From Candidatus Omnitrophota bacterium (GTDB lineage: Bacteria; Omnitrophota; Gorgyraeia; Tantalellales; Tantalellaceae): a stretch of DNA of 62,042 nt. Both the position numbers and the translations under genes were made by a program. Shown piece after piece: positions 1-41,146 of the stretch. Where the stretch lies: positions 1 to 62,042 of the forward strand of contig JBDRLO010000076.1 in NCBI GenBank assembly GCA_043812935.1. Direction: 5' to 3'. Each line of letters begins with the position of its first letter. Positions within the stretch are counted from its first letter, which is position 1. Under the pieces are notes generated by a model. That model saw nothing but the letters and a program-made list of their open reading frames with translations. It was not told where the DNA came from and did not search any database.

Positions 1-2271
1 CAGGCAACGTCAATACGCCTTAGCCGTGTTTTAGGCGCGAGAAGTAAATTCGCGGAAGAACTTAGGTATATAAGCAAACTTATAGCCAGAAAAAAAGCGA
101 AAGATAAAGCTCGAGAAAAAATGGAGGAGATTACACGAATGAAAGAGGAAGCCAAATCAATATGGAGTCAGCTGAATATCCCGAATGCTGCAAAACAGCC
201 CAAAAAGTATGAAATTTATAAGATATCGAAACTTGTTCTAGAAGGTAAAACAAACGAAGCAATGAGATTATTTTTTACAGGAGAAGCGTTTCAGAACAAA
301 ATAGAAAACCTGGATGTTCCCGCGGAAATATTAAATAATTTGTTGGAAGTATATGAAAAAGAACCAAAGGCGCGGGAAAATATTCTGGATTTCACAAAAA
401 GTTTAATAGCCGGGATTGTTGAGTTTTCAGGTAATGATGAAACATCTATTGAAGTCGCGAAAGCTGTACAGATTATGGCAGGGTTAGTATGGATAATGCC
501 CGAAGGTATGAGGTTTACTTCTGATAAAGACAATATGGTGGAAAATGATCGCGGTAAAAGTTATATTGACGTTCGAAAACTCCCGGAAGGTATAATAGAG
601 GTTAAAGAAGAAAAAGAACCAGGGCTCTACTGGCGGCATATAGAAGGTGTAGCTAAAATAAAAGATGTGAATATTATGAAGTTCGCGATTTATAATGAAA
701 GACAGTTTAATAACGCGTCAAAAAAAGTGGTTGATTATATTATGCTTCATGGAGGCAGAATAATTTCGGAAGAACTAAAAGAAGAAATTGGAAAAGGTAA
801 ATTAAGTAATCCTCATCAAACGTTTTTTGTTAACGGAATGTTACGCGGGTCTTTTCAGCCGGCAAGCACAGGACCTGGACATCTTCAGATTAAAAAGGTG
901 GGTGGAAAAAGAAAGGGAGTAGTAGATTTTAAAAAAATAAATAACGGAATGTATCTGCAGGTAAATGTAAAGTATGATACAGCCGGCGGAATGGTAAGAG
1001 TAATAGCTCAAATAGCAAAACAAGGTGAAATGTGTTTTACTATTCCGGGATGGCGGGATTATATGATAGATCTTGGCGGATATGGAATGGAAGGGTTTGA
1101 TGATTTTTCAATGGTGGTTTCTGAAGAACAGGCACAACTATTTGATCCTGATTACAAAGAAAGCGACTTGGAGAAAATAGAAGAAGCATTAGAAAACAAA
1201 GGAGAAAATGATTACGCGCCGTACGGAGCTTTGATGTTAAAAGATGGCCCAATACTTGTGAAGGCAAAAGAAGAATTCCCTGATGTTGTCTGGATTAATA
1301 TATCAAAAGAACATTTTTCCGATATTTCTTTTCAGGAACGCTATGAAAAGATTCTGTTTTCAGAAAAAACTGAAACATTTCTTTCAAATTTAGGCGTTCT
1401 TTGTGATGAAACAAAAAAAGAATCTCCTATCCCTGTTATGTCCATCCCGGAGGCGGAAAAAGCCGTGCAGGTGGAAGCTCCTGAAAAGCTTGAGTCATCA
1501 CCTGCCATGTCGCTGGGAATGACCAGCGGTATAGATTCATTTATGAGTGATACTGCTGACTGTTTAGCCGGGGGTAGCGGCACGGAACAAAAAACGGATA
1601 AACTTATAAGAATTCAGATTGAAACACTTAAGAATATTGAATCGAAAGAAGTAAAAGAATTGCTTAAAACAATGCAGAAGACGGAACATATTAATGTTGA
1701 ACTTTATTCGGGTAAAAATCCTGAACTTGAAGTTAATGCAGAACAATATGAAGATTTTGGCATTAAGAAAAAATCTTTACCGCAAGGTTTTAAAATGTCC
1801 CGCAAAAATACGATTACAATTCTTCAGGTTGATAAAGGTGAAGAGTTTCCTGCAAGTCCGGTTAATGACAAGTGGGCCAGGTTAGGGTTTCCCCTTAAAA
1901 AAGAAGAAAACCCTCTAGAAAAAACAATAATTTTACCTGTTGGATATAATTATGATCATACAGGGTTAGCGCGAAGTATATTTTTCGGATTAATTTTGTC
2001 TGAAATTGCCGAAGATGAGAGGATAAACAAAGAAAGTAATTTTGTCGCAGCGGCTTTAGCGCGTTTGATGAAACTGTATTTGAAACAAGGACAGCCCGCA
2101 AAGGATTTTAATTTAAACTGTGAGGATATCGTTAATTTAGCAAAGGGCGATGTTGAGGCATTTGTATCAGCATTGAATAAATTTATAAAAGTTTTACCCA
2201 TAATGCCTGTTAATGTGAATGAACAGCGTGATATATATGAACGCGCCAGAGAAGCTTGGATAAGGGCGTAA
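1..2271 (+). CDS. 5'-truncated large multidomain protein: cupin (archaeal-type PGI-like) domain plus shared C-terminal domain
   Basis: Frame is open from base 1 (QATSIRLSRV...AREK) into the 716-aa ORF, so the gene starts outside the window. STGPGHLQ...GMYLQV...GEMCFTIPGWRDYMIDLG resembles cupin PGI. Ends LPIMPVNVNEQRDIYERAREAWIRA. Confidence 0.75.
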   Translation, partial: QATSIRLSRVLGARSKFAEELRYISKLIARKKAKDKAREKMEEITRMKEEAKSIWSQLNIPNAAKQPKKYEIYKISKLVLEGKTNEAMRLFFTGEAFQNKIENLDVPAEILNNLLEVYEKEPKARENILDFTKSLIAGIVEFSGNDETSIEVAKAVQIMAGLVWIMPEGMRFTSDKDNMVENDRGKSYIDVRKLPEGIIEVKEEKEPGLYWRHIEGVAKIKDVNIMKFAIYNERQFNNASKKVVDYIMLHGGRIISEELKEEIGKGKLSNPHQTFFVNGMLRGSFQPASTGPGHLQIKKVGGKRKGVVDFKKINNGMYLQVNVKYDTAGGMVRVIAQIAKQGEMCFTIPGWRDYMIDLGGYGMEGFDDFSMVVSEEQAQLFDPDYKESDLEKIEEALENKGENDYAPYGALMLKDGPILVKAKEEFPDVVWINISKEHFSDISFQERYEKILFSEKTETFLSNLGVLCDETKKESPIPVMSIPEAEKAVQVEAPEKLESSPAMSLGMTSGIDSFMSDTADCLAGGSGTEQKTDKLIRIQIETLKNIESKEVKELLKTMQKTEHINVELYSGKNPELEVNAEQYEDFGIKKKSLPQGFKMSRKNTITILQVDKGEEFPASPVNDKWARLGFPLKKEENPLEKTIILPVGYNYDHTGLARSIFFGLILSEIAEDERINKESNFVAAALARLMKLYLKQGQPAKDFNLNCEDIVNLAKGDVEAFVSALNKFIKVLPIMPVNVNEQRDIYERAREAWIRA

Positions 2272-2276
2272 TTTTG

Positions 2277-2310
2277 TTAACCGGTTGGCCGGTTAGCCCG
2301 TTAACCAGTT
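2277..2310 (+). repeat. CCGGTTAG-family octamer tandem repeat
   Basis: ttaa-ccggttgg-ccggttag-cccgttaa-ccagtt just after the stop codon. Confidence 0.8.
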
Positions 2311-2328
2311 ATTTGTGTTGTAAAAAAT

Positions 2329-2373: not shown

Positions 2374-2483
2374 TTTTTCTTGTTGTAAATATTTTTCATT
2401 CAGGGTATCATATCATAAAAGTTGATCAGCGAAGTGAGTAATTAAATTATAATAATAGTAATACCATTTTTAGAAAAACTTTT

Positions 2484-3917
2484 ATGACAAAAAAAACCGC
2501 GAAATACATATTTTTGTTTTTTTATGTGTTTGCGGTTTTTTTTATAGCAGGTTGTCAGACGCTAAAAGCTCCGCCGAAACCTGATTTAGAATGGGTCCCG
2601 CCCAAATGGGAAAAAACAATCAAAAAACCGGACAAAGTATGGAACTTAATACGAGAAGAAGAAATAACTGATCAAGAGCCGTTAACTTTAGCGGAACTTG
2701 TGGATATGGCTTTTGCTAATAATCCGGTTATACGTAATGCCTGGCAGAAAGCGCGCGCTCGCGAAGCGGAAGTAAAACAAGCCCAAAGTGAATATTATCC
2801 TCAAGGTACGGTTTCAGGGGATATTACCAGGCAGAAGAAAGTTGCTACGCGTAAAATAGAAGATTCCAACAATTACAATTACAGCCCTAAAGCGGTTATT
2901 ACTTACATGATACTCGATCTTGGAGGCAGAGACGCTTCTGTGCGGCAGGCTACACAGGAAGTTATTTCAGCAAATTTTACGTTCAACCGTACAATTCAGG
3001 ATTTACTTTTTGATACAGCCAAGGCTTATTATAGCTTTTACAGCGCGCAGTCTGATTTGAAGGCGAAAAAAGCGAATGTTGAAGACGCTTCTACCGCGTT
3101 AGAGGCGGCTTCAATTAAATTCAGCACAGGGTTAGCTTCTAAACTCGACGTGCTCCAGGCAAAATCCAATTATGAAGATACTCTTTATTCTTTAGAAGAT
3201 GCCAAAGGCACAGTTTTTACAACAAAAGGCGATTTAGCCGAAACAGTGGGGTTTGCGCCTGATCTTGATTTTGAAATTACCGCTCCGGACGAGAATGTTC
3301 CGTTAAATATTACTTCGGAAAATGTGAGTATGCTTATTGAATCAGCTTTAAAAGAAAGGCCGGACATAGGCGCGGCAAGAGCAGTTTTATATTCAAAAGA
3401 GGAAGCAGTTAAAGTAGCGAATTCAGATTTATGGCCTACATTAAATATTACGGGATCCGCGGAAAAAAGATGGTACAGGTTTTTTGGAGATGAAGAGACA
3501 AATTGGCAGTATTACGATTGTTCAGGATATTTCAGCGTTAATTGGGATATCTTTGACGGCTTCTATAAATACTCAAAACGGCGCCAGGCTCAAGCTGAGC
3601 TGGATGCGGAACGTGAACAATTGAAACAAACGGAACTTAATGCCGCCAGTGACGTATGGACTAAATACTATAATTTAAAAACAGCTGTTAAAAAGCTTGT
3701 GTTTAGTAAATCTTTCCTGGAAACGGCGCAAGCTTCACATGATTTGGCGTTGGAAGGATATAAATCGGGTATTAAAAGTATACTTGATCTTTTGGAAGCA
3801 CAAAGTCAATTGCAGGAAGCAAGAAGCAAACTTGTAGAATCACAAAAAGATTTATTTGTATCATCAGCGGGTCTTGCTCGGGCAATGGGCACGCTTAGCG
3901 CAAAAGATTTAAAATAG
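2484..3917 (+). CDS. TolC-family outer membrane efflux lipoprotein
   Basis: Lipobox-like FFIAGC; two OEP repeats (NNPxI...QSEYYP; RPDI...LWPTLNI...VNWDIFDG); first gene of a tripartite operon. Confidence 0.9.
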   Translation: MTKKTAKYIFLFFYVFAVFFIAGCQTLKAPPKPDLEWVPPKWEKTIKKPDKVWNLIREEEITDQEPLTLAELVDMAFANNPVIRNAWQKARAREAEVKQAQSEYYPQGTVSGDITRQKKVATRKIEDSNNYNYSPKAVITYMILDLGGRDASVRQATQEVISANFTFNRTIQDLLFDTAKAYYSFYSAQSDLKAKKANVEDASTALEAASIKFSTGLASKLDVLQAKSNYEDTLYSLEDAKGTVFTTKGDLAETVGFAPDLDFEITAPDENVPLNITSENVSMLIESALKERPDIGAARAVLYSKEEAVKVANSDLWPTLNITGSAEKRWYRFFGDEETNWQYYDCSGYFSVNWDIFDGFYKYSKRRQAQAELDAEREQLKQTELNAASDVWTKYYNLKTAVKKLVFSKSFLETAQASHDLALEGYKSGIKSILDLLEAQSQLQEARSKLVESQKDLFVSSAGLARAMGTLSAKDLK

Positions 3918-3925
3918 CATTTGTT

Positions 3926-3962
3926 TGACCGGGTAATCGGCTAATCGGTTACCCGGCTAACT
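3926..3962 (-). repeat. CCGGTTAG-family octamers, reverse orientation
   Basis: accgggtaa-tcggctaa-tcggttac-ccggctaact upstream of the MFP start. Confidence 0.6.
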
Positions 3963-3977
3963 AAAAAGGGGACGACA

Positions 3978-5150
3978 ATGCCGGACAATTCGAAAAAACA
4001 ATTAGATCTTGATAAGATTTTTCATTATAAAAATTTGTCTGACCAAAATAAAAAGATTATTATTGGTATTTGCGTGGCGATATTTGTAATTACGTCTTTT
4101 GTTCAAATGCAAAAGCATTTAAAACGTTCTAAACATGAAAAGATTCATCCTAAAAGTGTAAAAATTGAGCAGGTAATTAAGAAAAATGTTCCAATGTATA
4201 TTGATTCTTTCGGGACATTGGTGTCTCCCGAGGATGTTGACATCAGGTCGCAGGTTACCGGAAAGATTAAAAAGGTTTGTTTTGTTGAAGGGCAGGATGT
4301 TTTAATAGGCGATCAACTTTTTATTATTGATCCGAGTGAATATAAAGCGAGCCTGAATAAAGCTGAAGCAACTTTACTGGAAGATGAGGCCCAACTTAGG
4401 CTTAAAAAAGATATCTTAGCAAGAAATGTCGGACTTTTAAAAAAAGAATTAATTTCACAACAGGAATTTGAAGAGTATGAAACGGATGTAGCAGTGACTG
4501 TGGCTAAGGTGGAAGTTGACAAATCTGAAATAGAGCTTGCAAAAATAAATCTGGGATATTGTTATATAGTTTCACCGATTAATGGTGTAACGGGAGTTCG
4601 GCAGGTTGATCCGGGAAATATTGTTTCTGCTAATACCGGGCCGGTTTTGGTTAATGTGAAACAGGTTGATACGCTTTACATGGATTTTACCATTCCGGAA
4701 AAAGAGCTCCCACGAGTTAGGAAAACAATGGCTGAGGGAACCCTGAAAGTGGTGCTTACTGTAACCGGCGATGATACTTCATCTTATACAGGAAAACTTG
4801 ATTTTCTGGAAAATTCAGTGGATGATCAAACCGGAAGAGTTTTATTGCGCGCAACAGTTGATAACAAAAACAGGGCGTTATGGCCGGGGCAGTTTGCGAA
4901 AGTTCAGCTTATTTTAGGAACAATTAAAGATGCGGTTTTGGCGCCGTATTCAGCGGTTCAGCTTGGACAAAAGGGAAGTTATCTTTTTGTGATAGACGCG
5001 CAGAATAAAGCTGATTTAAGGCTCGTGACTGTAGGACAAAAAGAAGAAGACTATATTGTAATTGAAAAAGGTGTAAAGACAGGAGAAAAAGCTGTAACGT
5101 CCGGACAGATGGGGCTAAGGCCTGGAGTTTTGGTTAAGGTTATTGATTAG
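3978..5150 (+). CDS. RND efflux periplasmic adaptor (MFP, MdtA/AcrA-like)
   Basis: N-terminal TM; IRSQVTGKI, IVSPINGVTG, LWPGQFAKV motifs. Confidence 0.92.
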   Translation: MPDNSKKQLDLDKIFHYKNLSDQNKKIIIGICVAIFVITSFVQMQKHLKRSKHEKIHPKSVKIEQVIKKNVPMYIDSFGTLVSPEDVDIRSQVTGKIKKVCFVEGQDVLIGDQLFIIDPSEYKASLNKAEATLLEDEAQLRLKKDILARNVGLLKKELISQQEFEEYETDVAVTVAKVEVDKSEIELAKINLGYCYIVSPINGVTGVRQVDPGNIVSANTGPVLVNVKQVDTLYMDFTIPEKELPRVRKTMAEGTLKVVLTVTGDDTSSYTGKLDFLENSVDDQTGRVLLRATVDNKNRALWPGQFAKVQLILGTIKDAVLAPYSAVQLGQKGSYLFVIDAQNKADLRLVTVGQKEEDYIVIEKGVKTGEKAVTSGQMGLRPGVLVKVID

Positions 5151-5215
5151 CCGGTTATGCCGGTTGTGGCCGGTCTATTGATGTAGATACAATGGAAAGT
5201 CGCACCTCTCCATAC

Positions 5216-5243
5216 GTAGGGACAGGCCCCTGTGCCTGTCCGT
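5216..5243 (+). repeat. GTAG-tagged REP-like palindrome, type A
   Basis: gtagggacaggcccctgtgcctgtccgt; GTAG tag followed by GGACAGGC/GCCTGTCC stem. Confidence 0.85.
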
Positions 5244-5300
5244 TAAATTAATGCATGTGAAATATGCAGCGTGTTACGCTAACAAAAGGATTAACAAAAT

Positions 5301-8300
5301 ATGCTTTTTTCTGAAGTTTTTATCAGAAAACCAATTATGACAACGCTTATTATGATGGCGGCGCTCATTTTTGGTGCAGGGGCCTATTTCTCGCTTCCTG
5401 TAAGCGATCTTCCTGTTGTGGATTATCCGGTTATAACTATTAACGTCAGCTATCCGGGCGCGAGCCCTCAAATGGTAGCTTCAACCGTGGCAAATCCTCT
5501 GGAAAACGAATGTATGCAAATCCAGGGGCTTCAAACTATTCTTTCTGATAATACCGAAGGCCAATGCACAATTACTCTTACATTTGATTTAAGCATAAGT
5601 GTTGATTTAGCGGCACCGGACGTTCAGGCTGCTATTTCACGAGCTGCGGGTAATTTGCCGGATGACTTGCCTGAACCTCCAACTTACGATAAAGATAACC
5701 CTTCCGATAAACCAATAATGCATCTTACGGTAACCTCAGATACGCTTACTCCCGGCCAGCTTTATGATTATGGTAATACTACAATAGGCCAAAGGATTAA
5801 TATGGTTAAAGGTGTTTCAAAAGTGGATGTATGGGGAGCCAAATCCGCGGTAAGAGTTCAAGTCGATCCTGATAGGCTTGCTTCTTATCAAATTGGAATC
5901 AATGAGATCGCGGATGCAATTAAAACCGGAACTGTTATTATTCCCGCGGGAAGTATTAACGGGCCATTGCGTGCGTTTTCAATTGAACCGCAGGGCCAGT
6001 TATTAAAAGCGGAAGATTATGCAAATTTGATAGTGACTTATCGGAATAACGCACCTGTGTATTTGCGGGATGTAGCGACATGCGTTGATGGCAATCAAAA
6101 CGACGTAGTTAGAGTTATGTATTACAAAGATGGCGAAGAGTGGCAGTCTGCTTGTGTTCATATTGCTATTAGCCGTGAAAGTGGGGCTAATACCGTTGCT
6201 TTGGCTGAAAGAATCAGAGATGTGCTGAAAGAACTTGAAGAGGAAATACCTGGAGCAGTAAATCTAAATGTGTTTTATGACAGGTCCATTCAAATAGTGG
6301 AATCAGTTAATGATGTAAGAAATACAGTGTTTATAGCGCTTGTACTGGTTGTATTAGTGATATTTTTGTTTATTGGAAGACTTTCTGATACGGTTATTCC
6401 GGGGATAACGCTTCCTTTTACGATTTTTGCCACTTTCATTTTTATGCTTGCCGCGGGATTTAGTTTGGATAACTTGTCTTTAATGGGGCTTACCCTTTCC
6501 GTCGGGTTTTTAGTTGACGATGCTATAGTTGTTTTGGAAAATACGGAGCGGCATGTTGAGGCAGGATTAAAGCCGATTAAAGCGGCTATTAAAAGCATGA
6601 AAGAAATTACGGGAACCGTTATTTCAACGAGCCTCGCGCTTGTAACCGTGTTTATTCCGTTGGTTTTTATGAGCGGGGTAGTAGGCCGTAATTTCAGTGA
6701 ATTTGCTTTAACGGTTGTTATCGCAATAATTTGTTCAACAATAATAGCGCTTACACTTACACCTATGATGTGCGCGCGTATGCTGAAAGTTTCCGGTGGA
6801 AGTATCTCGAAAACAAAAGTAGAAAAATTTACTGATAAATTTGTCGGTATAATGAGAGATAAATACGCGATGCTACTTAAATGGGTTTTGCAGTATAAAC
6901 TTGTCTCTATCGGTATGTGGATTGCGTGTGTAGTGGGATCGGTTTGGCTTTTTATGGTTTTGCCTAAAACGTTTCTTCCAACAGGAGACAGTGGCGCGAT
7001 TGATGGTCAAATGGAAATGATTTTGGGGACTTCAACTGATGAAATACAAAAATTTCAGGATGAAATTGATCTTATTATGCAGGATGATTCGAGTATAGAT
7101 AAGATTGTTACGGTAACCGGGTTACAGGCCGGTTCGGATCAAAGTACCGGGCTGTTTTACGCGGTATTAAAACCGCAAGGCGCAAAAGGCAGAAAACCAA
7201 TGGATAAATTTGTTGCCGGGTTAAGAGAAAAAATGAAAACGCTTGTACGCGGGAATGTATATCTTGAAGCTATTCCCGCGCTTCAAATAAGTACCGGAGG
7301 AGAGAGTACGGCTTCAGGTTCAAAGTATTCATATGTGATGAAAGGAATGGATAGTGCTAGTTTGTACAAATGTGCTTTAGAGTTTGAAGAAGAGGTCAAA
7401 AAGGTTCCGGGGTTTGTTGATGTACAGAACAGTGTAAAACTTAATATGCCGCAGTTAAATATTCGAATTCAGAGAGACCGGGCTTCGAGTTTAGGGATTA
7501 CAGCGAGGGATATAGAATATGGACTCAGTTTGGCTTTCGCGCAGGGCAAAACTACGTTATACAAAACGGAAATCGATCAGTATTATGTAGTAGTAGAACT
7601 CGACAAAAAATATCAAAAAGATCCGCGAAATCTCAGACAGCTTTATATACGTTCAAGCTCGACAGGAGAGTTAGTGCCTTTGAGTTCTATTGTGGAATGG
7701 GACGAAGGTGTTGGGCCGCAAAATGTGCCGCACTTTGACAGGCTTAATTCAGCTACAATATCGTTTAACCTGAAAAGTGATATGCCGCTAGGGAACGCTA
7801 CACGTTCTTTGGAAGAGATTGCTTCCAAGCTTATGCCCGCGGGTGTAACGGGAGAACTCCAGGGAGAAGCGCAGGAATTTGAAGATGCTGTAAAAAGTTT
7901 AAGTGTACTGCTTTTGATTGCGATATTTATTATGTATGTTATTCTAGGCATTTTGTATGAAAGTTACGTACATCCTTTTACCATTCTTACGACTTTGCCT
8001 CCTGCCGCGTTTGGCGGGTTGGCTACGCTTTATCTGTGCCATTCAGAACTTTCTATGTACGCGTATATCGGTATGTTTATGCTTTTAGGTATTGTTTCAA
8101 AAAACGGAATCATAATGGTAGATTTTGCTAACCAAAATTTAGAAGAAGGCGCAAAAACTGACTTAGAGGCTATATATAACGCGTGTCTTGTTAGATTTCG
8201 TCCTATACTTATGACAGGTGCTTCAACAATAATTGGCGCCCTGCCGATTGCTCTCGGATTTGGCGCGGACGGTGCGTCACGCCGCCCTTTGGGGCTTATT

Positions 8301-8462
8301 GTAATGGGAGGATTGATATTCGCCCAGGTCATAACTCTTTTTGTAACCCCGGCTATTTTTCTTTACATGCAGAATTTTCAGGAAAAATTCCTTGATAAGT
8401 TTGAACTATTGCGTTCCGGCCCGGCGCGTAAAGCTATTGACGCAAAACAGGAAGCTGATTAA
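5301..8462 (+). CDS. RND efflux permease (AcrB/MdtB/MdtC family)
   Basis: 1053 aa; FIRKPI start, LPVVDYP, GFLVDDAIVVLEN, KNGI, RFRPILMT proton-relay motifs. Confidence 0.95.
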   Translation: MLFSEVFIRKPIMTTLIMMAALIFGAGAYFSLPVSDLPVVDYPVITINVSYPGASPQMVASTVANPLENECMQIQGLQTILSDNTEGQCTITLTFDLSISVDLAAPDVQAAISRAAGNLPDDLPEPPTYDKDNPSDKPIMHLTVTSDTLTPGQLYDYGNTTIGQRINMVKGVSKVDVWGAKSAVRVQVDPDRLASYQIGINEIADAIKTGTVIIPAGSINGPLRAFSIEPQGQLLKAEDYANLIVTYRNNAPVYLRDVATCVDGNQNDVVRVMYYKDGEEWQSACVHIAISRESGANTVALAERIRDVLKELEEEIPGAVNLNVFYDRSIQIVESVNDVRNTVFIALVLVVLVIFLFIGRLSDTVIPGITLPFTIFATFIFMLAAGFSLDNLSLMGLTLSVGFLVDDAIVVLENTERHVEAGLKPIKAAIKSMKEITGTVISTSLALVTVFIPLVFMSGVVGRNFSEFALTVVIAIICSTIIALTLTPMMCARMLKVSGGSISKTKVEKFTDKFVGIMRDKYAMLLKWVLQYKLVSIGMWIACVVGSVWLFMVLPKTFLPTGDSGAIDGQMEMILGTSTDEIQKFQDEIDLIMQDDSSIDKIVTVTGLQAGSDQSTGLFYAVLKPQGAKGRKPMDKFVAGLREKMKTLVRGNVYLEAIPALQISTGGESTASGSKYSYVMKGMDSASLYKCALEFEEEVKKVPGFVDVQNSVKLNMPQLNIRIQRDRASSLGITARDIEYGLSLAFAQGKTTLYKTEIDQYYVVVELDKKYQKDPRNLRQLYIRSSSTGELVPLSSIVEWDEGVGPQNVPHFDRLNSATISFNLKSDMPLGNATRSLEEIASKLMPAGVTGELQGEAQEFEDAVKSLSVLLLIAIFIMYVILGILYESYVHPFTILTTLPPAAFGGLATLYLCHSELSMYAYIGMFMLLGIVSKNGIIMVDFANQNLEEGAKTDLEAIYNACLVRFRPILMTGASTIIGALPIALGFGADGASRRPLGLIVMGGLIFAQVITLFVTPAIFLYMQNFQEKFLDKFELLRSGPARKAIDAKQEAD

Positions 8463-8654: not shown

Positions 8655-11600
8655 ATGGATAACAAACACTACAAAAACATGAAAAAGGGTTTAACTTGTG
8701 CATTGGTAGCAATGTTTTGCGCTTGTTTTGTATTTCAGGATGCTTGGGCTGCCGTGGATCTAAACCGTGCGCGTTATGATATTCCTGTGGCGCCGCCGGC
8801 ATACGGGCATTTTGCCGTACTTGATACCAATACTTTTACTATTCCCGCGCATCTTGGCGATGTTAAATATGCCTATAACGGCGATTCAAATATGGTTGTC
8901 ATTCATATTCAGGATGCGCATTGTAATTATTATGCTCAGCGTAAGATTTCGGATATCCTTGATTATTTAAATAAAGAATATGGTGTAAGTGTAATAAATT
9001 TGGAAGGTGGCGTAGGTGAATATGATCTAGGTGTTTTTACGTCAATATCCGGAGAAACAATCAGAAAAGAAGTTGCCGATTACTTTGTTAAACAGGGTGA
9101 AATTAATGGGGCTGAGTTTTATGCTGTTAACAATCCTGAAAAAGTAATGCTGTGGGGGGTAGAAGACAAGGATTTATATTTGGATAATCTTCAGGTTTAC
9201 CGCGATTCATTAAAATATAAACCTGAAGTGGATAAATATTTAAACGAATTGACACATATTTTAAATAATTTAAAACGCCATATTTTTTCGCCGGAACTTT
9301 TGAAGTTTGACATAGCGTATGGTGCCTACAAGTCAGGGAACCTGGGGTTTCGGGAATACCTTGAATTTTTAATTGCAAAAGCAAATGATGCGGCAATTGA
9401 CGTAAAAAGTTTTAATAATTTGTATCTTTTGATCCAGGCAATGGAGCAGGAAGATGAAATAGATTTTAAAAAAGCAAATATGGAAAGAAACATTCTGATA
9501 GATGAACTTAAAAACAGTCTTTCCAAACATGAGATAGCAGAACTTGTTTCCAAAAGTGTTGATTTTAAAACAAAGAAGATCTCCCGCAAAAACTTTTATA
9601 GCTATCTTTTAACTAAAGCTGAAGAAGTTAAGATCAAGATTAGCCGTTTTTCTGAGCTGTCCAATTATATTACATATGTGATGACATATGAAGCAGTTAA
9701 CCGTTTTCATGTTATGAAAGAGCTTGATGAATTGGAGTCGAAAATAAAAGAGCCTTTATATAAAAATGATATTGACCAGCAGCTTACTAACCTTTCCCGA
9801 AATTTGGCGCTAACCAAAAACATTTTTAATATTTCACTGACAAAAACAGATTATGAATATTATCTTGCGAATAAAGATTCTTTTGGAATAATTAATTATG
9901 TTGATTTCATCGAAAAAGAAGCGCCGAAATATAAAATAGACGCCAGGCCTTCTGCGTCAATTTTTATGTTGGATGATTACCGGGGCAGGATATCCGGGTT
10001 TTACGAGTATTCCTTTGAAAGAGATAAAGTTTTTATTAAAAACCTGAAATTTCATCCTGAACGGGAAAATGTTGAAACAGCTGTACTTATGACGGGCGGA
10101 TTCCATACGGAAAACCTGTGCGATCTTTTTAAAAGTAAAAATATTTCTTATGTATCCATAATTCCAAAATTTACAAGTGAAAAAGGTTATGAGTGCCCGT
10201 ATTTTGATTTGCTTGCGGGCCAGACAACTAATATCCAGCGAATGCTGACTTCAGTTCTTGCGAAAACTTCAACACTTCAATACGCTAGCCGTCTTTCATC
10301 ATTAGGAAAAGATGTTTGGGGCGAACGAGAAATAGACAGTTTTAACGCAGCGGTATATATACGAGAACTTATTGTCAGAGCAAAACAGGAACAAGGCCGG
10401 AATATAAAGATAGTTTTGGTACGGGCAGATAATAGACCAGTTGAAGATGAAGAAGGCGAAGTTATTTTTGGGGAAGAAAACGCAGAACCCGAACTTTTAA
10501 CTGTTACAGAGCTTTTGGATGAGATTGCGCAGCCTATTTCGGTGCCCACTGTACCTTCTGTTCCGTCAAGAGGGGAATTGTCACCTAAAGTACGGGAAAT
10601 GAGAGATATTGCCCGGGCATCCTTCGAAGTTTTAACGACGAATCCTGTAGTGAAAACTGCTGTTCCGGAAAAGTTTGCTTTGCATAAAGCTATGAATCAG
10701 ATTGAAGCTGGTAAAAGCATTCTTGTTGTTACCGCGGAAGCTTCAGCCGTAAGGGATCTAAACGAAATATACGGACATACCGGGGTTGACCTTTTGAGAG
10801 ATGAGTTTGGAAAAGCATTTTACAAATTCATCGAACAGGAAAAAGATGAGTTAAGCGATATAGGTGTAAAATTTACTACATATTACAATCCGTATGGCGG
10901 CAGATGGCATTACATTTTTACGGTTGAAGAAGATTATAATGAACAGGCTTTTGAAAAATTTTTGAATAAGCTATTAGAATCTTCTCTTGCGCTTGCCAGA
11001 GAAGAAGCGGAAAAATCCGGTCTTAAAGAAACAAAAGTATTTAACGTCATTATGAGTGCTTCTGAACCAAGTGCTAAAGATATTAATATAAGTGTGACAG
11101 AGAAATATCAGGACAAAAAACAAAAGGTGCTTTTAGATAAATTATTTGGTATTTGCCGTGAAAAGAAAGTTCCCCAAAATGTGAAGGATTGGCTAGCGAG
11201 CAAAATAAATAGCCCCCCTGTTGAAATTTTGAATGAGCTTGAGGCGTATAAATCCGATTTGGGCATAAGTTCAATCAGTGAGTTTGAAAAAACAGTAGAT
11301 TTATTAGCGCGTGATGAATATTTAAAGAACAAGGTTAGGGATACAATTTACAATAGCCGTGATTTAATAATTTTCGCTGAAAATAAGTATTTCGCTGATA
11401 ATTTTATTCCATGGGCTTCACGAAGGGTTCGGGATGTTCTGGCGCAGAAAAATATATCCAATACTGTTCCAGCCGACGGGATAAAGAGGGTATTTTTTGC
11501 GGATGAAACGATAAAAGACTGGATCAGTAAAGCTAAGAATGACGGAGACTTAAAAGTTTTGTTTGATTATTTTGGACTGCCGAAATATATCCCTGATTAT

Positions 11601-13256: not shown

Positions 13257-13730
13257 TTAAAACCGCATAAATTGGAGAAGGTGTATGGTAAATACACAGG
13301 TGCCGATTATTGTACGGATAAGCCTCAAGCCCTGATTTTTCCAGGAAAAATTTTTTTTCAAAGAAAGGCTAAAAAGCCCTTCAACCAGTAGAAATATTCC
13401 TGCGATGAAAGCAGTCCAGTCTATAAAACTCTGAGTGAACGCGCTTTCAAGTATTTTACAGTCAATGCCCCAAATAAACTGTATTAAATGGACAGTAAAT
13501 ATACAAAGGCCTATTAGTATTCGTATAGTCCGCAAAAACTGGTCAGGGAAAAAAGCAGTTGGATATTTGCGTATTTTATAAATTGCTTCAGTTATCAAAA
13601 ATATTCCTACAAGAAAAGAAAACCAGTCAATTGTAGAATTCGCGAAATTTGTATCAAATAACCGGCAGATTATTAAAAATGCGGTTGTTATTAAGACAAT
13701 GATAATTATAATAGGTAATAGCTTTTTCAT
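13257..13730 (-). CDS. Small integral membrane protein with an internal duplication
   Basis: 157 aa, ~5 hydrophobic helices; IDWFSFLVGIFLITEA...LRTIRILIGLCIFTVHLIQF recurs as IDWTAFIAGIFLLVEG...LRLIRTIIGTCVFTIHLLQF. Confidence 0.8.
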   Translation of the reverse strand: MKKLLPIIIIIVLITTAFLIICRLFDTNFANSTIDWFSFLVGIFLITEAIYKIRKYPTAFFPDQFLRTIRILIGLCIFTVHLIQFIWGIDCKILESAFTQSFIDWTAFIAGIFLLVEGLFSLSLKKNFSWKNQGLRLIRTIIGTCVFTIHLLQFMRF

Positions 13731-34036: not shown

Positions 34037-34342
34037 CATAGATTAAGGCCAGACGTGCGGAAGTGATAAAAAAAAGCAAAAACCTTTTTAAAAATACAAC
34101 ATAACACGTTATAAACAAAGAAGATATGAAGCGGAAAAGCTATGTAAACATCAGGATTAAGCTTTCAAAAAGTTTGTTATATAGTTGCCACAATTTTCCG
34201 TGGATGTGATATATTAATACAATGATGTTAAGTAAATAAATACCTTGGTATTTCGCTTTATTTTTTTCTTAGGTTGGAGTATTTTATTGCATATTAGACA
34301 TATAAAACTATTGCGGATTATTAGTTGAAGGCACAGTTAGAT

Positions 34343-37300
34343 ATGAGATTAAAAAAAAATAATAATATTATTAAAATTATAGCATTAGGACTTAGCTTTT
34401 CATTGCTTTGGAATGGTGTAATGTGGGCTGATCCTAATGTTTTTGAAAAGGAAACTTTACAGCCTTTGACGCGTTTTACAGATTTTACTACGAATGAATT
34501 TATTTCCGGGATTGTAGGAAAGTATCTTAAGATATATTTTAGAGGTATAGAAAATGATTTTCGTAATTTAAATGTTCAGCATCTGCAAAGACTAATTAAC
34601 GAACGGCTAAAGCAAATAAAAGCTTTAAAAAATGTTCCTCCGGAAGTAAATAATAAGATCCCTGATAAAGTAAGAACTGATAAAAAGAATGCTTGTATAG
34701 TTGATCTAGGATCAGTCAAAATAAGATATTATAATCATCAAATACCTGGAGCTGAGGTTCCGGATCGTGATCCGGATAATCGTTTTTATAAAGCATATCC
34801 TGTTTTTCGGGGAGACTATCTTTCTAAACAATTCTTAGTTGAGGAACAAAACTTTGCGGCTTCTAATAAATTTCATCCAAATTCACCCGGTCCCGCGCTT
34901 TTTTTTGATTTTAAAACCGATACATGGCGGGCATTAAAAGACGTTCCTGAAGCAAGCCGTAAAATGTCAGAACATGATGTAATGAATATCGCGTGTAAAG
35001 AGTTAGTTTTTGATAGGAATAAAACGTCTCTTTCTGCGGGAAACCCTGTATATGATTATGTGTCAAAGGACAGCGGTTTTGAAGAGATTAAGCTGTATAT
35101 TCTTAATGACGATGAATTTAAACAAAATCTTACGGATAAAAAATCACAGTGTTTGGCCAAAGGATTAATAACGCATGCCGGGACGTACACGGATCCTGCC
35201 ACAGGTTTGTCCAGAGCGTTGAATCTTTTTATGCCGGAATCGGTTTATAATTATTTTACAGAATTATTGGAAAAAATGTCATCTATGAAATATGCGGGCG
35301 AGTTGCTTGCGTTCTGGAAAACACATGAATTGCGCCATTTAAAGGACAGAAAAGCTGATATTGATGGAAAATTTACAGAGTCAGAAAAAGATGCCGCGGA
35401 AATTATTCTTTGGATGAGTAAAACCTTATGGGCATTGAAAAAAAATAATTTACATGATGCTTTTGAATATGTGAATAAGATTGAAACGATAGAAAGTCAT
35501 GTTCTTTGTTTGTGTGAAATGCGAGGCCGGCTTCATGAGGCAAGCGGAAATTTGCAGGAAGCGTGTGACAATTATTTCACGGCATTAGCTATTATGAATT
35601 CGGATAATGCGAAAGTGCTGATAGGCCACACACTTGAAACAAAAACTATAGAAATGATTGAATCTTTGCAGCAAATTGTAGATAGAAATGTGAACAAATT
35701 TCCAATAAATAAAAAGAAAGCTGCGAATGCTATTGTGAATCCAAAGATCTCCCACAATCTATTTGTAGCGCGTATGGAAGCAGTGAGTACTTCCCCTCTT
35801 TTTTCTTTTGACGAGGACATGAAGCACAATAATCTTTGTATTATATATTTTGCGTGTGTTCCGATTATGTGCAGCTATATAGAGAATATTCTGCGGGAAA
35901 AAAACAAAATAACTTCATTTGCAAAAGAGATTGTAAGGGAATTATTGAAATTGATCGAAAAAGGAAAATTGGTAAACCCAATACTAAATGAAACTGAGAA
36001 TGATTATTTGGGGCGGGTGTATTATATTGCCGGAGAAGTATTCGCAGGACTTGGAAGTACTAATAAGGCTTTTGAATGCTTTGAACAGGCCTTGGATTAT
36101 GATGATACTGTTCCAGTATATTATGCCAGAAAAGCTGAGTTTTTGGTGGTTACGAAAAAAACAATGGAATCTCTTGCTGAGGCGCGAGAACTTTTATCGC
36201 AGGCTGAACAAAAATTCGGTTCTTTGGAAGTTTTCAGCAGTGCGTGGGTTTTTATAAGCGAAAAAGAAGTTTCAATAAAAAACGCCTTTGAAGAAGAGCA
36301 AGAAATGCATATGTTTTATGAGGAAATGTTAGAACTGTACAAAAATGGCAGATATAAGACCTGTCAGGAACGCATAGTTGAATACGAAAACGGAAAAAAT
36401 GGTTCTCCCAAAAAAAAGATTTCAGCAGAGCTAATGCGATTAAAAAGAGACGCGCATTCAGCGCTAAAATCAAGTCTAAACGCGCAAAAATGGATTAAAA
36501 TGGGGGATATGTCCCAAGCTGAATGGCATTTTAGGAGAGTTTTGCTGAAAAATCCTAATGATTCAAATGCCTGTAAAATAGTGAATATTTTTGAACGTGA
36601 AACCGAAATGCAAAAGCAACAAGTAATTACAGAACATTTGCTGCAGCAGAAACTGTCTGAAGCAAAAAAATATGTTTCAAGCGCCAAAGATAGAGAAGAA
36701 AGAGGGCTTATTGCAAAAGCAAGAAAAAGTTATCAAAGTGCTTTAGCTGAGCTTGCGCAAATTTCCTATAAAAACGAAGAAGCAGCACTTTTAAAAACAG
36801 AACTAGAAAAAGAATTAAAAGAGATAGAAAATCTGCCTGATAGAATTGAAAAAGTTCATGGGAACAATCATGATGAAGAGCCTAAAAAAAGACAGAAAAT
36901 TGTTACGAAGAAAAACGAAGAAGCCCCTAAGAATAAGGAAGAAAATGATGAAGATTACGGCAAACCGAAAATAAATAGAAAAATACGTCTTTCGGAAAAA
37001 GCCGCAAGGCTTTTGGGGAAGAAAAATGATATTGATCGTGAAAAAATTCTGAATATGATTAAAAACGTTGCGGCTGGCCGGCGGGATAATGTTAAAAAAA
37101 TTGAGCCACGCAAAAATCTTTTTAGAATAAGAGGTGACGAAAAAGACGTTGAGAGCAGGGTAGTTTTTACTTTTTGTGATGACAGCAGCATGTTAGTTCT
37201 TTTGATAAAGAAGAAGTCTCAAATAAAATACCCCAATATACTTAAACACTTTACGGAAGGGTTTGATTATGGGCCGATTATGGCATCTTCAGAGGAAATG

Positions 37301-40300
37301 GAAGACTTTGAAAAAAGGATAAAAGCATCAAAAAATGAAAATGTTCTTATGGCCATAGAGTTTCTGACAGGCGGAGTGCTTATTCTTTTTGTGTGTGAAA
37401 TTTTCCGGCAGATTTGGCATGGAAAGGTTTGTAAAAAATTGATTGGCCGCCATTCTAAATTGGCCGCGGCAGGAAATTTCATTTTCCGGGAGAAATCATA
37501 TTTCCCTTCAAATATAGAAAAGATTATTCATGGTTTGATTGTATTCGGATCAAAAGGTGTTGCTAAAGTTTCTGAATTTTTCAAGATAGTCATAGAATTA
37601 AGTAAAATAGCTATTCAAAAGAAAAAATATTTTGGTATTTTTCAGAAGCCTGTTCAACTCTGGTATGACAGGAGTGTTACAGCACAAATCCCAAAAGAAA
37701 AAATCATGAAAAATCTTGAATTAATAGTTGCAAATGCCGAAAATTTAGAGGAAGAAACCAAACAATTTGGGTTTGGCAGACAATTAAAAACTATTGATAT
37801 TGGATCGTATGTAAAGTCTTTATCTATTCTTCAAAACATGCTTAATAATACAAATATTTCTACTTATAGATTGAAAAATTATATCAGAGAAGCAGTAACT
37901 GAGATATTTTGTAAACAGGTAAATTTTTATCGAGAGGAGCCCTTGAAAGAAGATGTAGAATTATTAACTGAAACTTTTGATTATATTTTAAGTGAAGAAT
38001 CAAGGCACTTGGTTAAAGAGGATGCTCTTAAATTTGCTGTTGGAATTTTTATTGATATGCTGAAATCAAAAAAGATGCTTATGAATGGGAATCATAGAAT
38101 AATTAGCATGATTATGAATTTTATACTGCTAAAAAATGGTTTTCCTTGTTTTGTTTTGACATTGGATAATGTAGTCAAATACTATGCAATAAGTAAGTCA
38201 ATACAACGTGGAGATAGGAACTATAGCGATGATGAAATAACAGAATTTTTCAGAAAAGAAATAGAAAAAAACAGGGAAAAATTTAATTGGTTTAATTGGA
38301 TAAAAAAATGTTTAAAGATGCCGGGATTGAAGAATCCTGTTTTTTTGAAAGAAAATAAAGGTTCTTTTGTTGTAACGCCGAACGAAAATAAGGATTCCGA
38401 TCTTTCTGTGCCTTTAAAAGAGATAAAAACTCCGGCAGATATAGTGACAATGAAAGCCCCGGCTGCATCGCCCATAGAACTTGATGCGAGAGTGGATTTA
38501 AAATATATAACCGGTTTAATCTCGCAAGCTCGGGAAAGGACTGACGAGGCAAACATTTCGGAAGCAGTTGGTTATATCAATGTACATGCCCCGCCGTTTA
38601 ATGGTTCCAGGATTAATCCCGCAAATATTAAACTTTTTTCAATAGACTTGGGCAAAAAACTTGGTATTCCAAGGTTTAAAATGGCGGAAAGCGCGCAGGA
38701 TCTTATTTATGTGTTTCCAATTTATGACAGCGAAAAAAACATACTCAAGCTTTATGCGACTAAACAATATTTTGAATCACAGTTGAAGAATAATGCACTG
38801 GCATTGGCTGAAGCCATAGATCACGAATACACTGAAAAGGTTTTAGGGTATTCACACCGCGTGGCTTGTTCACGATCATACTTTTTCGCTACAGAAAAAA
38901 ACCAATTAACGCCTTTTCACAATTTTTATATTAATCAGATTATTTCAGAAGGCAATTTTTCTTTAGCAAAATTTATTGTTCCAGAACGGCACGCTTCTAA
39001 AGATGTTATTGAGGCTTTTGAGAACAATAAAACATTAATCGGCAAAATAGAAAATTATGATAAGCGTTTCTTTGATTATTTGTGTGCTGTTGTTCGTTTA
39101 AGGGATTTTAGTAAGTTCTTAATACGACAAATAGATAAAAATATAGCAAAACAGAATTATGCTGCATTTAAGGATTCAGATACAATTTTATTGGATGGAG
39201 TTGAGTCCGGGATGAGTCCTTTGACTATGCCGGATGAAACTGAACTTCGTGAAAAGCTTTTTGATGTTATTTCTAAAGAAAGCACAGGCCAAGGCAAGAT
39301 ATTATCCCTGGGAATAGGAAGAGGTCTTTTTGAGGCCCCCTTTGTAGGGGCGGGATATGATATGACAGGAATGGATTTTTGCCCGGAGGTCTTATCTTGC
39401 GCAAAAAAAAGAGGAATCAAAACAATAGAAGCTGATGTGGATGACCAGACTGTTTGGGAAAACTTGCACAAAAACCATGCCAAATTTGATACTGTGATTA
39501 TTCCTGAATCAATTGGGTATTATGATGAAGACAAGTTGTTTGAGAATATAAAAACTATTTTAAAACCTGGCGGGGATTTATATATTCTTGTTAGCGCAGA
39601 GTTGGCAGGGCTTTCTTTTGGTTATAAAGGGTTTAACTATAACCAAATTAAGGAAAAACTTAAGAGAAGCGGGTTTTTATTTAACAAAAAAACACAATGC
39701 AGGCATTACAACGGGAAGAAAACGACTATATGTTTAGTTAAGGCATCGCTTCCCGTTGAAAACAAGAATACAGCAGTTGAAGCTATTAAAAAACAGTATA
39801 GTGTGTTTGACGGGTCTGAAAGTCTTTTTGGGGGTATAAGCGGACATATTAGTACGGTAGCATCTCCTGAAGCATCAGAGCTTCGCAAAAAACTTTCGCA
39901 AGTTATTCTAAAACAAACTGGTCCATCTAGCAAAATATTGTCTCTTGCAGTGGGAAACGGTATATTTGAAGAAAATTTTGTTAGGGCAGGCTGCACAGTT
40001 ACCGGAGTTGACTGTACTCCCGAGGTTTTAGAACTGGCTAAACAAAGAGGTATAAATACGATAGAAGCGGATGTGAATAATTCAAATTTGTGGCAAGAAC
40101 TTGAGAAAAAAGAGAAATTTGATGCGGTAATTATTTCTGAAACAATAGGTTATTTCAATGAAGATGTGCTTTTTGAAAGGATAAAAAAAGTATTAAATCC
40201 AGGAGGGCGTATATATATTTTAACAACGCGAAATTCTGAAGAGAGGATGCCGGATTATAAAAGGTTTAATTCTAGGCGGATAAGGGCAAAACTTAGAAAA

Positions 40301-41146
40301 AGTGGATTTATTTGTTCGGAATATTTCGAAGGAAAATATTATCGCGATAATTTTCTAAAAGTACGTTTAATGACAACAAGATTACCTATTCAAAGAAAGA
40401 GAACTGAAAATCAACGAAATCAAACAAAAACGAAAAACATGAAAACTCCTAAAATTTTATGGGATGGTGAAAGAATTATCCGAAACGTTGAAGAAATTGT
40501 ACCTCGTCTTGTTCAAGGGATGATAGATACGGCTGAAGAGGCTTTCCAGAAGAAAGAAAAAGTTATTTTATATCTTGACGAAGCGTTTTCACAAAACAAT
40601 GAAGAAGAAGTTTCAGGTGCAATAGAAGACGTAATTAATTTACTAACAAATATTAAAAACAACAATAAAAGCCTTTTTGAATTTTTGAACGGTAAACTGG
40701 AAGTGCGTTGCGGGACAAAAGAAGAATTTAAGTCTAAAAAAGGAAAGGTTAAATCGGAAAATATTATAGTTGTTACTACTAAAGCCAATTATGAAGCAGG
40801 TTATTTTTCAACTATTGACGGGAATGGTATTATCGCCGCTATTGATGACAAAGATTTGCCCCAAAAGGCATATTGTCCTCTGGTTGAAACTGTTTTTTTC
40901 GCGATTGGTAAGTATCTCATTGGTAAGGATCTCAACTGGAACGAAGAAAAACTTTGCGAATGGTATGAAAAAATTCCGAATGTAACGCTTATAAAAGACC
41001 TTTCAAAAGCGGAGTATGCCGATTTATTTAATGGTAACGCGAAAAGCATAATTGTAAGATTAATACCAAATGCCGTTGAATTCAAAACAGATGATAAACA
41101 TGCTGAAATAATAAGGCATGTAAGGGATGTTCTGAGTAAGGCATAG
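34343..41146 (+). CDS. Giant secreted multidomain protein: HExxH zincin-like, TPRs, RelE/ParE-like, Fic-like, two class I SAM methyltransferases, shared C-terminal domain
   Basis: ATG at 34343 gives a signal peptide ending VMWA (the ORF track starts at TTG 34325); THELRH; TPR helices; IRLSEKA...LFRIR...RVVFTF; NGNHR; ILSLGIGRG and ILSLAVGNG; ends IPNAVEFKTDDKHAEIIRHVRDVLSKA. Confidence 0.82.
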   Translation: MRLKKNNNIIKIIALGLSFSLLWNGVMWADPNVFEKETLQPLTRFTDFTTNEFISGIVGKYLKIYFRGIENDFRNLNVQHLQRLINERLKQIKALKNVPPEVNNKIPDKVRTDKKNACIVDLGSVKIRYYNHQIPGAEVPDRDPDNRFYKAYPVFRGDYLSKQFLVEEQNFAASNKFHPNSPGPALFFDFKTDTWRALKDVPEASRKMSEHDVMNIACKELVFDRNKTSLSAGNPVYDYVSKDSGFEEIKLYILNDDEFKQNLTDKKSQCLAKGLITHAGTYTDPATGLSRALNLFMPESVYNYFTELLEKMSSMKYAGELLAFWKTHELRHLKDRKADIDGKFTESEKDAAEIILWMSKTLWALKKNNLHDAFEYVNKIETIESHVLCLCEMRGRLHEASGNLQEACDNYFTALAIMNSDNAKVLIGHTLETKTIEMIESLQQIVDRNVNKFPINKKKAANAIVNPKISHNLFVARMEAVSTSPLFSFDEDMKHNNLCIIYFACVPIMCSYIENILREKNKITSFAKEIVRELLKLIEKGKLVNPILNETENDYLGRVYYIAGEVFAGLGSTNKAFECFEQALDYDDTVPVYYARKAEFLVVTKKTMESLAEARELLSQAEQKFGSLEVFSSAWVFISEKEVSIKNAFEEEQEMHMFYEEMLELYKNGRYKTCQERIVEYENGKNGSPKKKISAELMRLKRDAHSALKSSLNAQKWIKMGDMSQAEWHFRRVLLKNPNDSNACKIVNIFERETEMQKQQVITEHLLQQKLSEAKKYVSSAKDREERGLIAKARKSYQSALAELAQISYKNEEAALLKTELEKELKEIENLPDRIEKVHGNNHDEEPKKRQKIVTKKNEEAPKNKEENDEDYGKPKINRKIRLSEKAARLLGKKNDIDREKILNMIKNVAAGRRDNVKKIEPRKNLFRIRGDEKDVESRVVFTFCDDSSMLVLLIKKKSQIKYPNILKHFTEGFDYGPIMASSEEMEDFEKRIKASKNENVLMAIEFLTGGVLILFVCEIFRQIWHGKVCKKLIGRHSKLAAAGNFIFREKSYFPSNIEKIIHGLIVFGSKGVAKVSEFFKIVIELSKIAIQKKKYFGIFQKPVQLWYDRSVTAQIPKEKIMKNLELIVANAENLEEETKQFGFGRQLKTIDIGSYVKSLSILQNMLNNTNISTYRLKNYIREAVTEIFCKQVNFYREEPLKEDVELLTETFDYILSEESRHLVKEDALKFAVGIFIDMLKSKKMLMNGNHRIISMIMNFILLKNGFPCFVLTLDNVVKYYAISKSIQRGDRNYSDDEITEFFRKEIEKNREKFNWFNWIKKCLKMPGLKNPVFLKENKGSFVVTPNENKDSDLSVPLKEIKTPADIVTMKAPAASPIELDARVDLKYITGLISQARERTDEANISEAVGYINVHAPPFNGSRINPANIKLFSIDLGKKLGIPRFKMAESAQDLIYVFPIYDSEKNILKLYATKQYFESQLKNNALALAEAIDHEYTEKVLGYSHRVACSRSYFFATEKNQLTPFHNFYINQIISEGNFSLAKFIVPERHASKDVIEAFENNKTLIGKIENYDKRFFDYLCAVVRLRDFSKFLIRQIDKNIAKQNYAAFKDSDTILLDGVESGMSPLTMPDETELREKLFDVISKESTGQGKILSLGIGRGLFEAPFVGAGYDMTGMDFCPEVLSCAKKRGIKTIEADVDDQTVWENLHKNHAKFDTVIIPESIGYYDEDKLFENIKTILKPGGDLYILVSAELAGLSFGYKGFNYNQIKEKLKRSGFLFNKKTQCRHYNGKKTTICLVKASLPVENKNTAVEAIKKQYSVFDGSESLFGGISGHISTVASPEASELRKKLSQVILKQTGPSSKILSLAVGNGIFEENFVRAGCTVTGVDCTPEVLELAKQRGINTIEADVNNSNLWQELEKKEKFDAVIISETIGYFNEDVLFERIKKVLNPGGRIYILTTRNSEERMPDYKRFNSRRIRAKLRKSGFICSEYFEGKYYRDNFLKVRLMTTRLPIQRKRTENQRNQTKTKNMKTPKILWDGERIIRNVEEIVPRLVQGMIDTAEEAFQKKEKVILYLDEAFSQNNEEEVSGAIEDVINLLTNIKNNNKSLFEFLNGKLEVRCGTKEEFKSKKGKVKSENIIVVTTKANYEAGYFSTIDGNGIIAAIDDKDLPQKAYCPLVETVFFAIGKYLIGKDLNWNEEKLCEWYEKIPNVTLIKDLSKAEYADLFNGNAKSIIVRLIPNAVEFKTDDKHAEIIRHVRDVLSKA

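Follow-up and report, generated by a model that had tools for sequence, protein, structure and literature searches.

A divergent C-terminal domain superfamily at the exact ends of large, leader-bearing proteins in one clade of Omnitrophota

The stretch of DNA analyzed here (the window) comprises the 62,042 nucleotides of contig JBDRLO010000076.1 (C76 in our numbering) in assembly GCA_043812935.1, a 1.39-Mb metagenome-assembled genome of a Candidatus Omnitrophota bacterium in 79 contigs. Four large open reading frames (ORFs) of near-zero Pfam content, designated A to D, are interspersed in the window with housekeeping genes, among them those for a resistance-nodulation-division (RND) pump, fatty-acid enzymes, SMC, recA, recX, and alaS. 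The C-terminal ends, or tails, of the four encoded proteins belong to a single divergent superfamily of C-terminal domains (CTDs) that had not been modelled before and measure ~205 to 240 amino acids (aa). An earlier note on this DNA had proposed by eye that four large proteins with different middles carry a common CTD, and had put that domain forward as a candidate new sorting or secretion signal of polymorphic effectors. The common domain is borne out by profile-profile links and by the matching secondary structures of the B and D tails, and the different middles are borne out by Pfam; the effector picture fared less well. New here are a ~220-aa alpha/beta domain, at least four families of it joined by profile and structure evidence, its exact end, and a quantified clade range.

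The four genes and their C-terminal domains, with limits taken from matches of hidden Markov models (HMMs), are as follows.
1 to 2271, plus strand: gene A, its 5' end cut off at the contig end.
1552 to 2268, plus strand: A-type CTD, ending ...EAWIRA immediately before the stop codon.
8655 to 13175, plus strand: gene B, 1506 aa.
12549 to 13172, plus strand: B-type CTD, ending ...KIDYGEIDDWKEAQDAVLKAL; AlphaFold2 (AF2) model with a predicted local distance difference test score (pLDDT) of 88 and a predicted template modelling score (pTM) of 0.87.
16710 to 20657, plus strand: gene C, 1315 aa, with a leader at ~aa 1 to 36.
19983 to 20654, plus strand: C-type CTD.
34325 to 41146, plus strand: gene D, 2273 aa from a TTG start.
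40412 to 41140, plus strand: D-type CTD, continuing to 41143 and ending ...VLSKA; AF2 pLDDT 70.

The ORFs are as the earlier note described them, and only its start for the C-type domain, 20105, lies ~40 aa too late (HMM start, 19983). Full-length orthologues of A are 1804 to 1810 aa long and have no Pfam domains. For D, the likelier start is an ATG at 34343, which gives 2267 aa; it is six codons past the TTG, and the database copy begins there. Very long ORFs are frequent in the source genome, the longest exceeding 8,500 aa.

The similarity of the four tails lies beyond sequence-versus-sequence detection, since pairwise BLASTP of the last 240 aa of A to D returned no tail-to-tail matches. Matches within the source genome were all C-terminal, with the C tail reaching four proteins, the D tail five, and the B tail two contig-end fragments. 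The paralogues in this genome number five for the C type (a 1,789-aa protein is one C-type member), six for the D type, and three for the B type. The genome holds at least 15 domain members, to which relaxed searches add probably three, including the 2,219-aa C24_61406_68065. Profiles made only from own-genome paralogues gave no significant link between families in hhalign. The informative profiles held ~30 sequences per family, with homologues from other genomes added, and their profile-profile comparison gave the following values.
C with D: probability 95%, E = 2e-8, 168 columns.
A with D: probability 87%, E = 4e-6, 46 columns.
A with B: probability 59%, P = 9e-5, 85 columns.
B with D: probability 29%, P = 6e-4, 111 columns.
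A with C: probability 7.6%, P = 0.005, 26 columns.
B with C: probability 1%, P = 0.05, 38 columns.

All six family-pair alignments are colinear and reach the last column, that is, the C-terminus. Controls with a reversed partner were null in 12 of 12 cases (P >= 0.19), with scores of at most 14.9 versus 18.5 to 60.5 for the real pairs. When the D profile was deepened with 140 database representatives, the A-D probability was 95.5% (1.6e-8), the C-D probability was 94.5% (8e-8), and the B-D comparison gave P = 0.0014. Over both sets of comparisons, the reversed-profile controls stayed at P >= 0.12, with scores no higher than 15.8. One protein, L029, is matched by the C and D profiles alike. A word-index homologue search with the D tail region returned only the query, the index and its length window being ill-suited to this family. 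As a criterion for the superfamily, we propose colinear profile similarity that ends at the last residue of a leader-bearing protein. By that measure, A, C, and D are connected at 87 to 95%, and B is connected at 59% with A and at P = 6e-4 with D, to which the structural agreement described below (Q3 = 0.70) is added. The tails of A, C, and D are homologous, and the B tail is very probably homologous to them.

AF2 models were made for two of the four tails, those of B (14 sequences; pLDDT 88, pTM 0.87) and D (23 sequences; pLDDT 70, pTM 0.70). The order of helices (H) and strands (E) is identical in the two, H-E-H-E-H-E-H-E-H-H-(h,h)-E-H: a long helix, four strand-helix units, two longer and two short helices, a fifth strand, and a final helix that in both models extends to the C-terminus. 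The predicted fold is a five-stranded Rossmann-like alpha/beta domain, closed by the final strand and an amphipathic helix. When the DSSP secondary structure strings of B and D were mapped onto each other through the sequence-only hhalign alignment, they agreed at 70% of 194 positions (three-state agreement, Q3 = 0.70), and the five strands paired one to one. Circular shifts gave 39 ± 5%, with 52% for the best shift, and none of 226 reached the observed value. The features picked out earlier by eye have their places in this fold. Strand 3 accounts for the "N-x-hydrophobic strands" and strand 4 leads into the "hydrophobic helix," while the pattern of a final strand, an optional proline, and an acidic helix corresponds to strand 5 and the terminal helix, the best conserved part of the domain. 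The consensus of that part is LLPIMPxNxEELRxIYExAREALIRA in the A family, LKIKKIDYEEIRDWKxAQDEVLRSL in the B family, and YILPKxxxFxTxxLRELYE....AA in the D family.

No Pfam or NCBIfam model matches any of the four tails (E <= 0.1), and Foldseek searches of PDB and BFVD with the B and D models yielded nothing at E <= 1e-3. The weak hits that Foldseek did return are generic Rossmann-like proteins at template modelling (TM) scores of ~0.3, namely SIS isomerases, Piwi MID domains, TIR domains, and vWA proteins, the last matching only at E >= 0.02. Profile searches against PDB sequences were empty for A and D; with the B profile they gave a marginal match to ARF GTPases (E = 8e-4) over 79 positions (46 to 124 of the profile), a strand-helix-strand stretch. 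An ARF-like small GTPase was rejected as an identity for the B tail, the P-loop GxxxxGK[ST] being missing from the B alignment and GTPases from the Foldseek matches. None of Pfam, NCBIfam, PDB, and Foldseek gave a match that accounts for the domain. In the family alignments, the four families have no conserved polar residue in common, each having conserved residues of its own, so that a binding or docking module fits better than an enzyme with one active site.

The C-terminal position of the domain is close to invariant. In 106 of 110 fetched loci (A, 30/30; B, 20/21; C, 30/30; D, 26/29), the stop codon lies 0 to 3 residues past the end of the domain envelope, a point that the earlier note had wanted checked by an HMM search. 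Among public genome and metagenome loci, 35 of 35 finish on the same motif immediately before the stop, and in the top 150 D-type database representatives the domain closes the protein in ~148. Even the last residue is constrained, being Ala in 30 of 30 A-type, Leu in 28 of 32 B-type, and Ala in 32 of 34 C-type proteins, and Ala or Val in 143 of 150 D-type database representatives. Many D-type proteins (L136-L155, P0006-P0155) end Y-[LVT]-A-A or S-A-[AV]. The D-type ends resemble the apolar C-termini that tail-specific proteases, and ClpX in the case of ssrA tags, recognize; by analogy, these ends could hint at a PDZ-type reader or a quality-control degron. Short D-type database proteins, candidates for a CTD without cargo, look like leaderless fragments and are uninformative.

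The N-terminal ends of the carrier proteins were judged by sequence inspection, hydrophobicity, and charge. The complete genes B, C, and D open with basic residues, followed by a hydrophobic core and a site of the AxA type, as do the complete own-genome paralogues, in keeping with the Sec-type leaders first proposed for them. A leader is present in 40 of 40 fetched homologue N-termini (13 C-type, 11 D-type, 8 A-type, and 8 B-type), in support of the association of the domain with leader-bearing proteins. By a crude hydrophobicity measure, 87 of the 112 D-type database representatives that start with Met have a leader; additional membrane-like segments are lacking in 80 of these 87. The motif L-x-V-Q/E-S/T-h-x-x-P occurs after the leader, within the first ~90 aa, in 23 of 50 CTD proteins versus 13 of 543 control ORFs (for example, at 8820 to 8846 of the window and in contigs C59, C9, and C41 of the same genome); these counts are only indicative, because the motif was defined after inspection of the data.

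The middles of the CTD proteins are unrelated to each other. That of D has two S-adenosylmethionine (SAM) methyltransferase domains and a TPR region (Pfam), two C-type paralogues have WD40 propellers, and one D-type paralogue has a helicase-like AAA_12 domain, while A, B, C, and several other carriers have no Pfam match. Stretches of D and B that seemed to resemble Fic, RelE, and GGDEF, and an apparent J-domain motif (FHPDR) in C, found no support in Pfam, NCBIfam, or PDB searches. The N-terminal and internal features of B and D are as follows.
8655 to 8750, plus strand: B leader, with a basic n-region, a hydrophobic core, and an AWA/A site, judged from sequence and hydrophobicity.
8802 to 9254 (aa ~50 to 200), plus strand: B N-terminal domain, common to seven other large ORFs of the genome.
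37346 to 37402 (aa 1008 to 1026), plus strand: D internal hydrophobic segment with a basic flank after it, atypical for the family.
39242 to 40249, plus strand: the two class I SAM methyltransferase domains of D (Pfam), its cargo.
The N-terminal domain of B has the motif LDxxTFTIPxHLG ... IHIQDAHCN, and similar domains occur in genes downstream of A- and B-type genes in other genomes. The leader of D ends at approximately MWA/D.

Within Omnitrophota, the superfamily is restricted to a single clade. A-type tails are found in 42 and B-type tails in 40 of 54 genomes of the same GTDB family. Among 301 sampled Omnitrophota genomes, C-type tails occur in 29 and D-type tails in 26, the latter with a maximum of 9 copies per genome and in open frames as long as 6,838 aa. 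In this sample, at least one of the four families is present in 17/17 genomes of family f1, 14/15 of f2, 2/2 of f3, 1/1 of f14, and 2/3 of f15, that is, 36 of 38 genomes of five related families versus 3 of 262 in the rest of the sample. These figures describe a range and are not a statistical test, since related genomes are not independent. A search of 1.84 billion representatives with the D profile gave 530 clusters at E <= 1e-3. One short contig of a genome from a distant Omnitrophota family with 6% contamination (G150:C232; L028, L052) carries both a C-type and a D-type tail, which may be due to misbinning or to horizontal transfer. Several of the public contigs that carry B-type tails (L121, L123-L126, L129, L133-L135) are titled "uncultured Planctomycetia bacterium"; their content is Omnitrophota-like, and the labels are probably wrong.

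Taken together, the terminal position, exact end, leaders, swapped cargo, paralogues, clade restriction, and lack of conserved catalytic residues fit best with a common address or docking module for Sec-exported proteins with swapped middles, a reading to which we give a probability of about 45%. The proteins would be exported by Sec via the N-terminal leader, and the folded CTD would then dock onto a partner common to all of them, which could be a receptor or anchor in the envelope or the site at which an outer-membrane translocon recognizes its substrates. Cargos of many kinds could thereby be gathered at one place on or beyond the cell surface, and the exactly conserved free C-terminus would probably be part of the recognized surface. 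A sorting role of the CTD is plausible but unproven. Of the new sorting or secretion CTD proposed earlier, the unmodelled, C-terminal, leader-linked, and lineage-restricted character has stood; the predicted fold is a ~220-aa Rossmann-like alpha/beta domain and not a small beta-sandwich tag.

Several observations weigh against the docking module. At 220 aa, the alpha/beta domain is large if it serves only as a signal, the membership of B, the weakest link, rests on moderate statistics, and the leaders were assessed from hydrophobicity and charge only. No partner or machinery turned up at the loci, a result obtained with no genome-wide search for secretion or sorting genes. The hydrophobic segment of D at aa 1008 to 1026 is followed by a basic flank, by which the C-terminal half of the protein, CTD included, is predicted to be cytoplasmic. 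SAM methyltransferases and a helicase-like ATPase, as cargo, depend on cofactors of the cytoplasm; hence either such cargo acts in another cell or the topological reading is wrong for some members.

A more specific form of sorting is possible, if doubtful. The CTD would be the recognition element of an unrecognized sorting pathway, particular to this clade, in which folded, Sec-exported enzymes are picked up via the CTD and their free carboxyl end, possibly by secretin- or pilus-type machinery near giant genes, for surface display or for delivery into a host or prey. Omnitrophota are thought to be host-dependent or predatory, and secretion and pilus loci adjoin their giant genes (West-Roberts et al. 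2023, 10.1101/2023.11.21.568195).

It is rather unlikely that the CTD is instead a regulatory, ligand-binding, or enzymatic Rossmann-like module, for example for a nucleotide or sugar phosphate, that controls the cargo and has nothing to do with sorting. The Rossmann-like fold class and its weak neighbours (SIS isomerases, Piwi MID, TIR, and vWA) would agree with such a module, as would the marginal match of the B profile to ARF GTPases (E = 8e-4), and the acidic motifs LAFDxDIG and AIDD of the D family, at the ends of strands 1 and 4, recall a metal site. However, those motifs are not kept in A, B, or C, the four families have neither a common polar residue nor a P-loop, and the structural matches, at TM ~0.3, never reach E <= 1e-3. 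A ligand-binding or enzymatic function would also leave the strict C-terminal position, the exact end, and the coupling to leaders unexplained.

Less probable again is that the domain is one of two "bookends," the other being the leader, post-leader motif, or head domain, which would clasp the ends of the polypeptide or mark its processing into modules; the domain would then not be an address on its own. The enrichment of the post-leader motif (23 of 50 CTD proteins versus 13 of 543 control ORFs) and the conserved N-terminal domain common to B-type proteins are in favor of paired ends. The motif, however, is post hoc and missing in half of the proteins, and B has no N-terminal domain in common with A-, C-, or D-type proteins.

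Gene neighbourhoods bear chiefly on the proposal of polymorphic effectors. The CTD genes are resident and syntenic across genera; D adjoins cinA-recA-recX-alaS, and in at least 10 genomes a B-type gene comes after an A-type gene in the same orientation. The segment between A and B in the window is occupied as follows.
2484 to 8462, plus strand: TolC-like, HlyD-like, and AcrB genes, given as context.
This RND pump was considered as the machinery and rejected, the same slot in genome G045 having the order A (1,804 aa), B (916 aa), and aldo-keto reductase with no pump between them. Because it is missing there, the pump is context and not part of the system, and it was inserted or lost between A and B in a lineage-specific manner. 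The genes that recur downstream are additional B-type genes, the aldo-keto reductase gene, and one for a small membrane protein encoded on the other strand; none of them resembles an immunity gene or a component of a secretion system. In the window, the small membrane protein is encoded at 13257 to 13730 on the minus strand; it has 157 aa, an internal duplication (STIDWFSF...IHLIQF twice), and no Pfam match, and a homologue lies on the opposite strand downstream of B-type genes at at least five other loci. Directly downstream of C, at 20917 to 22524, is a 535-aa ORF with a clear signal peptide and propeller-like repeats; it has no Pfam match and does not carry the CTD.

With resident, syntenic genes and no conserved immunity-like neighbours, polymorphic effectors are the wrong picture for these proteins, and it is improbable that they are polymorphic toxins or effectors injected into a host or prey through a new secretion system of their own, with the CTD as its recognition element. 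The architecture of a leader, interchangeable enzyme cargo, and a constant tail would suit effectors, as would the cytoplasm-type cargo enzymes and the host-dependent or predatory lifestyle, with secretion and pilus loci beside giant genes, that West-Roberts et al. (2023) describe; neither Pfam nor NCBIfam detected a toxin domain, however. That the four tails, or at least B, are unrelated and resemble each other through a generic alpha/beta pattern and chance is very improbable: pairwise BLAST and thin profiles are empty, B-C and B-D are weak, and Rossmann-like element orders are common, but C-D, A-D, and A-B are significant, 12 of 12 reversed controls are null, the six alignments are colinear to the C-terminus, B and D agree in register (Q3 = 0.70), and phyletic range, architecture, and exact end are common to the families.

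Omnitrophota are abundant, tiny, uncultivated, and probably host-dependent bacteria. One C-terminal module on at least 15 proteins, ~4% of the coding capacity of the genome, offers a concrete handle on where large proteins are placed. The module defines a list of cargo, is usable as bait for a partner (receptor, anchor, or translocon), and is amenable to fusion constructs. If the partner is a translocon, the domain would represent a new principle of cargo recognition beside the type IX secretion system (T9SS); an anchor as partner would account for the decoration of the cell envelope with enzymes.

Long and giant modular proteins of Omnitrophota have been described, mostly with signal peptides or membrane segments and with mixed enzymes, including methyltransferases and GNAT, and TPR/HEAT repeats (West-Roberts et al. 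2023, bioRxiv 10.1101/2023.11.21.568195; 2026 preprint 10.64898/2026.06.07.730766). A shared C-terminal domain is not described in the full text of either 10.1101/2023.11.21.568195 or 10.64898/2026.06.07.730766, and the CTD proteins, unlike those giants, are mostly 0.6 to 3.4 kaa long. Among the closest known systems is the T9SS cargo of Bacteroidota, which also combines a Sec leader, arbitrary cargo, a conserved last domain with a conserved extreme C-terminus, many paralogues, and restriction to a lineage. The CTD of T9SS cargo, however, is an Ig-like seven-stranded beta-sandwich of ~70 to 100 aa (PMC11285876; RgpB, PorZ, and others), whereas the Omnitrophota domain is a ~220-aa alpha/beta domain in the AF2 models and belongs to another phylum. 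No tail matches the Por_Secre_tail or T9SS CTD models (Pfam and NCBIfam, E <= 0.1). Unlike PEP-CTERM proteins sorted by exosortase, the tails have no C-terminal hydrophobic segment, end in an amphipathic helix and a small residue, and match no NCBIfam model; the LPXTG motif of sortase substrates is missing from the four tails and from the family consensus sequences. As the earlier note had held, the domain is not a T9SS CTD, a PEP-CTERM tail, or an LPXTG tail. Polymorphic toxins have the reverse arrangement, with a variable C-terminal part on a constant N-terminal trunk and an immunity gene, whereas the Omnitrophota proteins combine a constant C-terminal end with varying middles.

Among type IV effector domains, XVIPCD of the Xanthomonas effectors (X-Tfes) and BID of the Bartonella effectors (Beps) are C-terminal, ~120 to 140 aa long, and route interchangeable enzymatic cargo. 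Their substrates are not known to have a Sec leader, their recognition by a coupling protein takes place in the cytoplasm, and X-Tfes have immunity genes. No similarity was found between XVIPCD or BID and the Omnitrophota CTD. CWB2 (in the Cwp proteins of Clostridioides difficile), SLH, and OmpA-C-like modules are constant folded modules that accompany many functional domains and a signal peptide and bind one envelope component; CWB2 and OmpA-C are alpha/beta, CWB2 and SLH occur in triplets, and none of these modules is known to be tied to an exact C-terminus. The Omnitrophota CTD is like these anchors in joining a constant module to varied domains, with no sequence or Foldseek similarity to them. 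By analogy, a docking module that serves as an anchor would parallel CWB2, SLH, and OmpA-C-type modules, and one that is recognized by a translocon would parallel the T9SS.

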